A stretch of 64,000 bases of DNA from positions 68,140-132,139 of the forward strand of contig JBHGAY010000013.1 in NCBI GenBank assembly GCA_041946735.1, written 5' to 3'. Position numbers and translations under genes: made by a program. Position 1 is the stretch's first letter, and every line of letters begins with the position of its first letter. The notes under the pieces are model-generated. The model saw nothing but the letters and a program-made list of their open reading frames with translations, did not search any database and had not been told where the DNA came from. Positions 59,237 through 64,000 of this stretch are shown here, piece after piece. The DNA is from Candidatus Eiseniibacteriota bacterium (GTDB taxonomy: Bacteria; Eisenbacteria; RBG-16-71-46; CAIMUX01; VGJL01).

Positions 59237-60907
59237 CTACGGCAGCCGGACGAGGCGCCCGGTCGCCGTCCCGCCGTTCGAGCGGATCCGCACGAGGTAC
59301 AGCCCGCGCGGGACCGCGCGCCCGGCCGCGTCGCTCCCGTCCCAGTCGATCTGCGCCGTGCCTCCGCCGCCGGCCGGCGCGACGCCGTCCCAGCCGCGGA
59401 TCCATCGTCCCTGCAGGTCGAAGATGGCCACGGATGCGGCGGAGCCCGGCGCGATCCGGAAGCGCAGCTCCGTCGCGGCCGAGAACGGGTTCGGGAACGC
59501 GCGCAGGCCGGCGGTCTCGCCGGCGATCGCTCCGGCGAGACCAGGGTCGGCGATGGACGCCGGGTCGTGCGCCGGCACCGCTCCCGTCTTGAGCGCGTCG
59601 TGGCGCCACTGGCCCCAGACGAGCGAGGAGGGGTCGTAGGTGCCAGGCCCGAGGTCCCAGCAGTAGATCCGCGTGTCGTTACAGCCGACCAGCAGCTCCA
59701 GGCTCCCGTCGCGATCGAGGTCCTCCAGCAGCGGGGAGGAGTAGATCGTGTAGGTCGGGTCGGTAATCGGGAAGCCGGGGAGCGAGGAGCCGTCGACGTT
59801 CCACCCGTAGACCTTCCCCGTGTTCTCGCCGATCACGATCTCCGGCGCGCCGTCGGCGTCGACGTCGCCGATCGAGGCGGACGATTTGACCGTGTAGCTC
59901 GTCGGGCGCGGCCAGCCGGGGAGCGGCGAGCCGTCCGGCTCGAACGCGCACACCTGCGAGTCGTTCATGCCGACGACGATCTCGAGGCCGGCGTCGCCGT
60001 CGAGGTTCGCGAGCGTCGGGCTGCTCTCGCAGGAGTACCCGGCGTCGAGAGGCCAGCCGGGAAGGTACGCGCCGGCGCCGTCGAGGACGTGAATCGATCC
60101 GTCGCGCGCGCCGGCGACGATGTCGAGGTCGCCGTCCGCGTCGATGTCGCCCAGCGCCGGCGAGGAGATCGCCCCGCTTTGCCAGAGCACCTTGGGGAAT
60201 CCGGGAAGGTTCGTCCCGTCGCCGCGGATGGCGTAGAGCTGGTAGTCGGAGTTGTCGGCCGTGCAGACGATCTCCGCGATGCCGTCGCCGTCGAGATCGC
60301 CGAGCGCCGGCGAGGAGCGGACGACGTACGGCGTGTGGTACGGGAATCCGGGGCAGAGCGTGCCGTTGCCGCGTAGGGCGTAGATCCCGCCGTCGTTCGA
60401 GCCGAAGACGATCTCCGGATGCCCGTCGCCGTCGATGTCGCCGATCGCGGGAGTCGAGAAGATCATCCAGCCGGTCTGGAACGGGAAGCCGGGGCGGACC
60501 GATCCGTCCGGCTCGAAGACGTGGAGCTTGCCGTCGAAGTTGCCGGCGATCAGCTCGGGTGTGCCGTCATCGTCCAAGTCCGCGACCGCGGGCGAGGAGC
60601 ACTGGTTCACCCATTCGTCAGGACCGAGCGCGTCGCCGAGGAAGCGCGGCCACCCCGGAGCGATCGACCCGTCGTGCTCGAAGACGTAGAGATAGCGATC
60701 CTGGGAGCTGATCACGATCTCGAGCTCGGGGTCGGCGTCGAGCTGGGCGGCGACGGCGGACTGCGAGACGCTGTACGCGGTCGCGACCGGCCAGCCCGGC
60801 TCGGGGACCGGAACCCCGCCGGCTGCGGAGGCAGCGACCCCTGCGAGGCCGAGCGCGACGACGAAGAAGACGGCGACGGCGGGAATGGAGACGCGGAACC
60901 GATCCAT
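59237..60907 (-). CDS. Secreted FG-GAP/VCBS-repeat propeller protein with FlgD-like C-terminal domain
   Basis: Signal peptide, repeated SSPA.GD.DGDG..EIV and PG(W/F)P units, PNPF...WDG. Confidence 0.9.
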   Translation of the reverse strand: MDRFRVSIPAVAVFFVVALGLAGVAASAAGGVPVPEPGWPVATAYSVSQSAVAAQLDADPELEIVISSQDRYLYVFEHDGSIAPGWPRFLGDALGPDEWVNQCSSPAVADLDDDGTPELIAGNFDGKLHVFEPDGSVRPGFPFQTGWMIFSTPAIGDIDGDGHPEIVFGSNDGGIYALRGNGTLCPGFPYHTPYVVRSSPALGDLDGDGIAEIVCTADNSDYQLYAIRGDGTNLPGFPKVLWQSGAISSPALGDIDADGDLDIVAGARDGSIHVLDGAGAYLPGWPLDAGYSCESSPTLANLDGDAGLEIVVGMNDSQVCAFEPDGSPLPGWPRPTSYTVKSSASIGDVDADGAPEIVIGENTGKVYGWNVDGSSLPGFPITDPTYTIYSSPLLEDLDRDGSLELLVGCNDTRIYCWDLGPGTYDPSSLVWGQWRHDALKTGAVPAHDPASIADPGLAGAIAGETAGLRAFPNPFSAATELRFRIAPGSAASVAIFDLQGRWIRGWDGVAPAGGGGTAQIDWDGSDAAGRAVPRGLYLVRIRSNGGTATGRLVRLP

Positions 60908-60948
60908 GGCGCTTCCTCCTGGGAGACTGTCGGCGGCCCGTGATCCCG

Positions 60949-62592
60949 TCACGGCAGCTTCACGAGCGGGACCGACCCGCCCGCGTATCCGATGATGTAG
61001 ACGCCGGGGGGGCACACCCTCCCGTGCGCGTCGCGGCCATCCCACACGAATCCTGCGGCGTCGTCGAGAGAACCCGAGCGGTCCGCCGCGTCGAGCGAGC
61101 GGATGCGGCGGCCGGCGACGTCGAAGAGGACCGCGCGGACGCCGGCGGGGGCGCTCCGGTCCCCGCCCGCGTCTCGGAGGACGATCCGCACCGGCTGGCC
61201 GGCGGCCGACGGGTTGGGGATCGCCGCGAGAGCGCGCCGTGTCGCGGGCGGCGCAATGGCTGGATCGCGATCGTCCACCGCGGACGTCGCGGCCCACGGC
61301 GCAAAGAGGACGTGATCGCCGACCTCGTCCCCCAGCCCGCCGGGATTGGCGGTCGGATGGTAGGGACCGCTCGCATGGCCCCAATAGCTGTTGCGCGCGT
61401 CGATGTCCATCTGCGTCTCGAAGGCGGACACCGCGAGACCGTTGCCGACGAACTCCCCCTCGACCGCGGAAAGACGCCCGCCCATCACGAAGAGACCGCC
61501 CGCCCACTCCGTCGCTTCGTTCCGCAGGACGGAGCAGCCGAGGAGCGTCCCGTTCGTGTCGCGCAGAAGGCCGGCTCCTCCCATGCCATCGCAGCGGTTC
61601 TCGACGACGCGGCAGTCCTCGAGCGCGAAGGCGGAGGCGATCGCGCGAATCCCTCCCCCTTCGAGCGCCGCGACGTTGTCATGAATCTCGCAATCGATCA
61701 GCTTCGCCGCCTCGGCGCAATCCATCGCGAGCGCCCCGCCGAGTGACGCCGTGTTCTCCTCGAACGAGCAGTTCTCGATGCGGGCGGTCCCAAAGGTCAC
61801 GGAGGCTCCTCCGCCCGATTCGGCGGTGTTCCCGCGCAAGACGCATCCGGTCATCGAGGGAGTTCCCGATCCGTCGAAGGCGACGCCTCCGCCGATGATC
61901 GTCGCCCGGTTGCCCTCGAAGACGCAGTTCTCGATCCTGGGGTCGCTTTCCGAATAGAAGAAGCAGACGGCTCCGCCCTGGATGCCGGAGGTGTTCCCGC
62001 GGAACACGCAGTTGCGGAGGACCGGCCGTCCGCTCGCGACATAGAAAGCCCCGCCATGATTGTCCGCCCGGTTCTCGATGAAGATGACCTCCTCGAATCG
62101 AGGAGAGGCTGCCACGCAGCGGACCCCGCCGCCGGAGCAGTACGGTCAGGTGCCCTCCGCAGCTCCGTGCTGGATCGTCAAGCGGCGGATCATCGCGGTC
62201 GAGTCGATCAGGCCGGCCACCTCGAGCACGGAGAGCGTGTCGCGGCCGTCCAGGATCGTCTGCTCCGCCGCGCCGGGTTCCCCTTCGAGCACGAGCCCCT
62301 GCTTGACGGGCCAGATCAGGTTCTCGTAGTAGACGCCCGGAGCGACCCGGATCGTGTCGCGCGCATTGGCCGCGACGAACGCGGAAGCGATCGTCGGCTG
62401 CTCGCTCGGGACGTGGATGACATGCGCGGCGGCGATCCCAGCCGCGCCGGGGAGCGCAGGAAGCGCCGCGAGGATCGGAAGGATCGCGAGGATCGGAAGG
62501 ATCCCGAGGACGGGCAGGAACTGGACCCTCGTGAGGGACGAGAAGCGCGGGGCGATGGCCGCACGCTCCTGCGGGCGGGATTCGATCGACAA
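60949..62592 (-). CDS. Secreted parallel beta-helix/FlgD protein with in-frame TGA at 62146-62148 (candidate selenoprotein, U-P-Y-C)
   Basis: ORF-track pieces 62146..62736 and 60949..62115 share a frame and are separated by one TGA. TTG start after AAGGAG, signal peptide, beta-helix repeats, FlgD tail. Confidence 0.82.
62116..62132 (-). promoter_or_regulatory. Candidate bacterial SECIS hairpin
   Basis: GCGGCGG-GGT-CCGCTGC with the loop 21-23 nt after the TGA. Confidence 0.7.
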
Positions 62593-62794: not shown

Positions 62795-64000
62795 TTAGGG
62801 AAGCTTCACCACTGTGCCGGACCGCGCCGCCAGCCGGACGACGTAGACACCGGGAGCGCAGGGGTTGCCCGCCGCGTCGCGGCCGTCCCAGCGCAGGATC
62901 CCGTCGGGCGAGGCGGCAAGCACGCGCACGCGCCGGCCGGCGACGTCGAACACGGCGCCGCCACCCGCGTCGCAGGCGCGCCCGAGAACGATGCGAACCG
63001 GATCGCCGGCCTTCGAGGGGTTGGGGAGGATCGCAAGCGCGCCGGAGCGCGGCGCCGGGCCGGCAGGCGCCCCCGGATCATCCGCCGCATCCGAAGACGC
63101 CTCCCAGGGATCGAAGAGGACGCGGTCGCTCACCTCGTCGCCCAGCCCGTCCGGGTTGGCGATCGGATGGAACGGCCCCGTCGCGTCGCCCCAGAAGTTC
63201 GCGCGCGCGTCGACGTCGAACTCCGGCTCGACCGCCGAGAGCGCGAGACCGTTGGCGATGAACTCCCCCTCGACCGCCGCGAAACGTCCGTGCAGGAGGA
63301 GGAAGCCGCCCGCCCATTGCGCCGCGACATTGCGCAGGACCGATGATCGGAGCAGCGTGCCGGAAGAATCCCGGAAGTACCCCGCGCCGCCCGTCCCCTC
63401 GGTCGTGTTCTCGACGATCCGGCAGTCTTCCGCTGCGAAGACGGAGGACGAGCCATGCAGCGCTCCGCCTTCCGATGCGGCGCGGTTGTGCAGGAACTCG
63501 CACGCCACGAGCTTCACCCCTTCCCCGCTCTGGAGGTCGATCGCTCCCCCGTAGGTTGCGCCATTGGACTCGAACCGGCAGCCGGTGATGCGCGCCATAC
63601 CGGCCGAAACCGAGACGGCGCCGCCCGCATCGCCGAAGTTGGCGCGAAGGGTGCAGCCGGTCATCGACGGCGTGCCATGCCCCTCGAAGGCGACCGCGCC
63701 CCCCATTCCGATCGCTGCGTTGTCCTCGAAGAGACATTCCTCGACGCGAGGACCGGCGTGCGTGTCGAAGAGGCTCGCGCCGCCTCCGCTGCTCGCCCGG
63801 TTCCGCCGGAAGACGCATCGATGGAGGATCGGCGCGGCGCCGGCCTCGGCGTAGAAGCCGCCTCCGTTGTTCTCGGCGTCGTTGTCCACGAAGATCACTT
63901 CCTCGAAACGGGGAGAGGAGCCGAGGCAGCGGACCCCGCCGCCCGAGCACCACGGTCACATGCCTTCGGCGTGCCCGTGCTGGAGGGTCAAGCGCCGGAT
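62795..64000 (-). CDS. Paralogous beta-helix/FlgD protein with in-frame TGA at 63956-63958 (candidate selenoprotein, U-P-W-C); 5' end outside the window
   Basis: Manual translation IRRLTLQHGHAEGM*PWCSGGGVRCLGSSPRFEEVIF continues in frame into ORF 62795..63898. Confidence 0.82.
63924..63944 (-). promoter_or_regulatory. Candidate bacterial SECIS hairpin
   Basis: GGGCGGCGG-GGT-CCGCTGCCT at the same spacing from the TGA as in the paralog. Confidence 0.72.

Follow-up and report, generated by a model that had tools for sequence, protein, structure and literature searches.

Why two tandem genes at the end of a contig should each be interrupted by a single in-frame TGA, and why the same short hairpin should follow both, is the question raised by a 64,000-nucleotide (nt) stretch of the 4.9-Mb, 68% G+C genome of a Candidatus Eiseniibacteriota bacterium (contig JBHGAY010000013.1, positions 68,140 to 132,139; hereafter the window). 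The genes, A and B, are minus-strand tandem paralogs located where contig C5 ends, each encoding a beta-helix with a FlgD-Ig-like tail and each carrying one in-frame TGA (62148 and 63958). The answer reached here is that the hairpin is very probably a bacterial selenocysteine insertion sequence (SECIS) through which SelB would drive the incorporation of selenocysteine (Sec, U), giving one full-length, likely exported beta-helix protein per gene with a predicted selenium-sulphur (Se-S) bridge in a UxxC motif. SECIS-directed Sec insertion at the UGA, with putative SelB binding, is judged highly probable.

The genes, codons and hairpins concerned are as follows (window coordinates).

60949..62592, minus strand: gene A, read through its TGA, 547 amino acids (sequence, Pfam, structure model)
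62146..62148, minus strand: TGA codon in the frame of gene A, probably encoding Sec; counted from the inferred start it is residue 149 (U-P-Y-C at 62148-62137)
62116..62132, minus strand: SECIS-like hairpin A, 7-bp stem, GGU loop at 62125-62123, encoding part of G-G-G-V-R-C (folding -10.6 kcal/mol)
62795..64000, running beyond 64000, minus strand: gene B, 3' 401 codons (sequence)
63956..63958, minus strand: TGA codon in the frame of gene B, probably encoding Sec (U-P-W-C at 63958-63947)
63924..63944, minus strand: SECIS-like hairpin B, 9-bp stem, GGU loop at 63935-63933 (folding -15.5 kcal/mol)

Two interrupted genes and their hairpins

The start of gene A, a TTG at 62592, was inferred from an AAGGAG 7 nt upstream, and the databases contain only the 388-amino-acid downstream piece of its product (P0001). 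The 5' part of gene B, with a signal-like peptide, lies at the start of contig C42 and brings the total to about 511 amino acids; a 73-nt gap, bridged in frame by contigs of both public runs, separates C42 from the end of C5, and both TGAs are identical in the contigs of the second public sequencing run. The peptides around the two codons read ...EGT-U-PYCSGGGVRC in A and ...EGM-U-PWCSGGGVRC in B.

An earlier note on this DNA had described an identical sequence after both TGAs, folding around a GGT loop 21-23 nt past the stop and extending to a longer stem in the second copy. That description stands: an 18-mer occurs exactly twice in the genome (62133-62116 and 63943-63926), 12 nt past each TGA, and the GGU at +21 to +23 is enclosed by 7 pairs in copy A and by 9 in copy B (63944-63924). 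The identity also extends, as had been stated, to synonymous positions, with 6/6 codons alike between the paralogs (p about 0.008, post hoc), a figure that follows from a background in which identical residues are encoded by identical codons in only 124/225 cases, and Gly in 14/43. The likeness drawn to Escherichia coli fdhF was likewise found, the GCAG-GT-CTGC of that gene being present with its loop GGUC at +19 to +22. Hairpin A appears in the centroid structure, but other pairings are taken up in the minimum-energy folds calculated for stretches of 43 and 63 nt of copy A.

According to a 2026 review (PMC13188914), bacterial SECIS elements vary in sequence, and their consensus model (Fig. 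2A) has an apical loop of 3-9 nt, an upper stem of 4-16 bp, a G within the first two loop positions, mostly as G[G/U], a distance of 16-37 nt between UGA and loop, and an energy of at most -7.5 kcal/mol. Hairpins A and B fall within every numeric range (loop 3 nt, stems 7 and 9 bp, 20-nt spacing, -10.6 and -15.5 kcal/mol as isolated hairpins), their GGU loop agrees with the rule on G, and G24 and U26 are invariant in 31/31 aligned family rows. A search of Rfam gave no match to a SECIS model up to E 10.

Conservation and covariation of the hairpin

A search of 206 genomes of the phylum gave 428 matches, of which the best 150 are listed. All listed TGA matches, part of the best non-TGA matches and the genome's own loci were compared with a hidden Markov model over the collected loci, which yielded 217 distinct rows, 36 with TGA (12 genomes) and 181 without; the latter serve as controls and include later coils and part of the non-TGA matches. 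Within the best 150 of the 428 matches there are 35 stops, every one a single TGA and none a TAA or TAG. The TGA falls at the same column in 34/36 TGA rows, among proteins 28-54% identical around it, and homology extends to both sides of the conserved in-frame UGA. A G[GU] loop on a stem of 7 bp or more is found in 33/36 TGA rows versus 10/181 non-TGA rows, and at background rates of 11/1024 at the TGA ends and 5/565 at the TAG ends of long open reading frames (ORFs) of the genome. The same peptide without a TGA should not form the hairpin if the two are linked, and among GGGV[RHYL]C rows it is present in 26/26 with TGA and 0/8 without. In three GGGLR members (L008, L009, L010) it is shifted by two bases, with a 6-8 bp stem kept and an fdhF-like GGUC at +19. 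Five rows (L059, L070, L093, L097, L107) have Cys at the TGA column and no GGU hairpin, and one of these Cys forms, L093, clusters with two Sec forms (Shimodaira-Hasegawa-like approximate likelihood ratio test 97).

The pair 21:29 joins the wobble base of the second Gly codon to the second position of the codon that follows Val, so that GGC goes with Arg, GGT with His or Tyr, and GGA with Leu. It is Watson-Crick in 28/28 TGA rows (C-G 10, U-A 15, A-U 3) versus 15/75 same-peptide controls. Over the 31 of 36 TGA rows that remain when three register-shifted and two off-column rows are omitted, 95.6% of cells are paired, and the covariation score (0.249 vs 0.155) was reached by 0/500 shuffles, tests that are inflated by kinship of the rows; on a quick tree of 42 Sec rows the pair changes type 8 times, though only a few of these changes are required by strongly supported branches.

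A pattern scan of 185,579 species genomes extended the range. Its pattern fixed most of the stem and left pair 21:29 free, and therefore only the free pair counts as a test. The 80 matches lie in 78 loci; 66 are family members by score, from 33 assemblies with six phylum-level names: Eisenbacteria (7), Fermentibacterota including Aegiribacteria (4), and Krumholzibacteriota, Effluviviaceae, Neomarinimicrobiota and Gemmatimonadota (one each), a further 18 having no phylum-level label. The free pair is Watson-Crick in 63/63 distinct members versus 7/14 chance matches, and Cys stands at +3 in 52/63 versus 1/14. The hairpin is retained in the A+T-richer members L127 and L143, and selB is above cut-off in 10/10 further carrier genomes tested. 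A second subfamily, mainly of Fermentibacterota, has UxxC-GGGGVHC in a later coil; at the Fermentibacterota loci L175-L177, L179-L180, L184-L185 and L136/L165 two or three beta-helix genes form tandem arrays, and every gene in them has this later-coil motif together with the same hairpin.

It is clear that the hairpin structure is conserved beyond the peptide and tied to the UGA. Because dozens of remote relatives preserve it through compensatory base changes, it is most likely a Sec-insertion signal, and the proposal that the GGGVxC coding stretch doubles as a SECIS-type RNA element is supported by this family-wide conservation and covariation. The earlier suggestion that the two copies in this genome are themselves independent support does not survive, since paralogs in one genome are not independent; the strength lies in the family. 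These data bear directly on the view that the TGA really ends translation, the gene being split or a pseudogene, or else arose as an error of assembly, the hairpin then being a by-product of G+C-rich Gly and Arg codons. Weak folding z-scores speak for it, as does the 388-amino-acid downstream ORF given by gene callers. It is contradicted by the conservation and covariation, with the same codon and column recurring in 12 genomes of the phylum and 33 scan assemblies, by the second run, which agrees on both TGAs, by the hairpin's absence where the same peptide lacks a TGA and its persistence in the A+T-richer L127 and L143, and by a structure model in which the stop would split a single domain; it can hardly be correct.

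Proposed decoding of the UGA

The genome encodes selA, selB and selD, all above their cut-offs, together with tRNA-Sec (selC). Its own selD carries an in-frame TGA, and the likeness that had been expected between the hairpins and a bona fide Sec gene is seen there: the selD TGA is followed by an 8-bp stem whose loop, GGA, starts at the same +21. TGA is the commonest stop codon (1024/1675 long ORFs), and recoding at genes A and B is therefore site-specific.

The hairpin might instead stimulate generic read-through, with the UGA decoded as Trp or Cys. Aromatic residues are indeed common at this column in non-TGA homologs, with Trp in 4 rows, and TGG to TGA is a single change. Against this stand the general use of TGA as a stop, the finding that the sole UCA-anticodon tRNA found is tRNA-Sec, the agreement of loop sequence and spacing with the selD element, and the excess of Cys at +3 in the family over chance matches. 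Decoding as Trp or Cys is thus very improbable, and insertion of Sec remains the preferred reading.

The encoded protein

The product of gene A comprises, in order, a hydrophobic signal-like N-terminus, a right-handed beta-helix and a FlgD-Ig-like C-terminal domain; PF13229 scores above its cut-off and PF13860 below. Both genes end in a tail that resembles the sorting domains of type IX secretion system (T9SS) cargo.

60994..61140, minus strand: tail of gene A, FlgD-Ig-like and similar to a T9SS sorting domain (PF13860 under its cut-off, E 0.016)
62816..62977, minus strand: tail of gene B, FlgD-Ig-like and similar to a T9SS sorting domain (PF13860, E 3.6e-4, and PorZ C-terminus, E 0.005, each under its cut-off)

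The structure model of the read-through product of gene A (mean predicted local distance difference test, pLDDT, 95.7) is one single-stranded right-handed beta-helix, with an N-terminal capping helix, that continues across the TGA. Pfam and the fold search agree with the model on the beta-helix, and by all three the protein does not have a thioredoxin fold. In sequence it is weakly linked to PL6 lyases and to pectin methylesterases. The N-termini are hydrophobic as judged by eye, and the genome has SprA_N and 8 PorV-family genes above cut-off; export of the A and B proteins by signal peptide and T9SS-like tail is probable. The Sec is predicted to occupy the T3 loop of an early coil, next to the groove, and mostly has a Cys partner: a Cys lies within -6 to +5 of the TGA in 62/68 members, 54 of them as UxxC.

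In the mechanism proposed, which starts from a conserved, covarying UGA and hairpin and a genome-encoded Sec machinery, both in evidence, SelB carrying Sec-tRNA would bind the GGU loop and the UGA would be decoded as Sec. The protein would then be exported via its signal peptide and T9SS-like tail, and the Sec would come to lie in the T3 loop of an early coil, ahead of the PB1 strand that is encoded by the hairpin itself. Finally, a Sec-Cys bond would pin or redox-gate the loop where it borders a groove of the glycan type. The formation of an Se-S bond with the nearby Cys, the loop being pinned or redox-gated, is given somewhat better than an even chance.

Two other uses of the residue need to be considered. 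Recoding may proceed as proposed with the Sec and Cys serving, in place of a bridge, as ligands of a metal (Cu, Hg, Fe) or as a catalytic nucleophile at the groove; this is unlikely, if still to be taken seriously. The motif varies (UxxC, CU, CxxU, lone U), the thiol is absent there in most non-Sec homologs, no further conserved His, Met or Cys ligands occur near the Sec site in the close clade, and the fold matches are tied, a common fold saying nothing on function. Improbable, in turn, is that UGA and SECIS act mainly as a selenium-dependent expression switch or as a selenium sink for surface proteins, with no specific Sec chemistry. Such a role would suit a Sec whose surface loop is variable, homologs having F, Y, W, S or a shortened loop there, and a genome in which several unrelated, likely exported proteins carry candidate Sec sites. 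The partner Cys that accompanies the TGA in 62/68 members, together with the existence of CPxC and CPxxC forms, points instead to selection on thiol/selenol chemistry.

Several observations weigh against Sec insertion in a bridged, exported beta-helix as set out above. Folding energy alone is not significant in DNA of 68% G+C (z -0.5 to -1.95), the hairpin of copy A has competing structures, and two of the 36 TGA rows (L042, L086) have a 4-bp stem only. Among non-TGA homologs with Pro at +1, F, Y or W occupies the TGA column in 17/34 and Cys in 4/34; this excess of aromatics is unlike typical Sec/Cys pairs and argues against an ancient catalytic thiol. Co-occurrence with selA does not discriminate in the order, since selA is present in 33/35 of its genomes, and Cys forms also occur in selA-positive genomes. 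In six of the 68 members no Cys is near in sequence (four have one on the next strand or loop, two none), the tail domain is below its Pfam cut-off, and the structure model was built with U treated as C.

Neighbouring genes and other candidate selenoproteins

The signal region of gene A contains a short tandem repeat (ILPILAILPILA; 62470-62510, minus strand). The gene directly downstream (59237-60908, minus strand) has an N-terminus that looks like a signal peptide, repeats that by eye are FG-GAP-like and a C-terminal tail of the kind seen in A and B; beyond it lie genes named from their sequences as dxs, leucyl aminopeptidase-like and thioredoxin reductase-like.

About 20 candidate selenoproteins were counted in the genome as a whole. 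Six paralogs (G000:C23:524(+), C71:58527(+), C18:16149(-), C24:4026(-), C24:1802(-), C8:74628(+)) have signal-like N-termini, a TGA in UxxC of the EDFGxx-U-PYCPxARCGL type and a hairpin with loop GUG at +21, at least four of them with a T9SS-like tail; they would form a second family of likely exported selenoproteins. A likely exported beta-helix gene, G000:C16:31215(+) (L197), has a TGA (GGAVCT-U-PGD, CxU) and a 7-bp hairpin with its loop at +19. Further likely exported proteins with in-frame TGA and hairpin are encoded at G000:C38:704(+), C45:59737(-), C45:128031(-) and C21:59817(-), their motifs being, respectively, CU with GGUC at +21, a lone U with GGUC at +21, CVGU in a propeller-like protein and CGU in an outer-membrane-barrel-like protein. 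Candidates resembling known selenoprotein types by eye (G000:C7:65708(-), C61:4147(-), C71:109667(-), C1:159134(+), C12:257108(+), C30:36000(+), C24:33119(-)) include TlpA-like UxxC, AhpF-NTD-like UPYC, Bcp-like, CxxU AhpD-like and thioredoxin-like lipoproteins. A single 679-codon frame at G000:C45:176323-178134(+) fuses VKOR to two DsbA-like domains; DsbB was looked for in this genome and not found.

Comparison with known systems

No beta-helix family is among the 119 selenoprotein families of the 2026 review (PMC13188914, Table 1), and the family was not found in the accessible part of BSepDB. NCBIfam release 20 has no selenoprotein model for it, and literature searches found no report of a Sec beta-helix family. 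It would thus be a widespread selenoprotein family in a fold absent from that catalogue, and one that databases split into fragments. A wider reading, offered tentatively and at rather less than even likelihood, is that uncultured Eisenbacteria and neighbouring phyla have a selenium-rich secretome, with SECIS elements in GGGVxC strands, Sec gained in surface loops partly from aromatic codons and not from catalytic Cys, and Se-S redox switches or reduction-resistant staples on surface glycan-binding proteins. If true, Sec is used outside oxidoreductase folds. The family also offers a testable case for the question why Sec is retained, in this instance extracellularly and in a fold other than those of redox enzymes.

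The right-handed beta-helix fold is shared with the PL6, AlgE and CE8 enzymes, and conserved polar residues are seen among the members; known beta-helix proteins that share the fold and its N-terminal capping helix are 10-20% identical, none of them entered as a selenoprotein in the PMC13188914 catalogue. The UxxC motif, even as UPYC, is shared with selenoproteins catalogued in PMC13188914 Table 1 (Trx, Grx, AhpF-NTD-like and DsbA/DsbG-like), as is the existence of Cys homologs, whereas here it lies in the loop of a beta-helix with a T9SS-like tail, and in most homologs an aromatic residue, not Cys, stands in place of the Sec. Likely export is a feature in common with the few extracytoplasmic selenoproteins of the same catalogue, namely TonB-dependent receptors of the FCYXU type, SaoB/SaoX and ExtKL.

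With the hairpin the bacterial SECIS class most likely gains a new member, one that is ordinary as an RNA element. Like the elements of fdhF and of the genome's own selD, it lies in coding sequence just 3' of the UGA, with a small loop that opens with G, followed by G or U; the 20-nt spacing and 7-9 bp stem conform to the class, and the loop begins at +21 as in selD. It differs from that of fdhF in its perfect stem, without the bulged base, and its 3-nt GGU loop. Unlike known bacterial SECIS elements, hairpins A and B overlap the most conserved strand of a beta-helix coil, and a synonymous Gly codon consequently tracks a surface residue (Arg, His/Tyr or Leu), making this a clean case of dual coding in which a synonymous codon follows an amino-acid change and the RNA pair is preserved.
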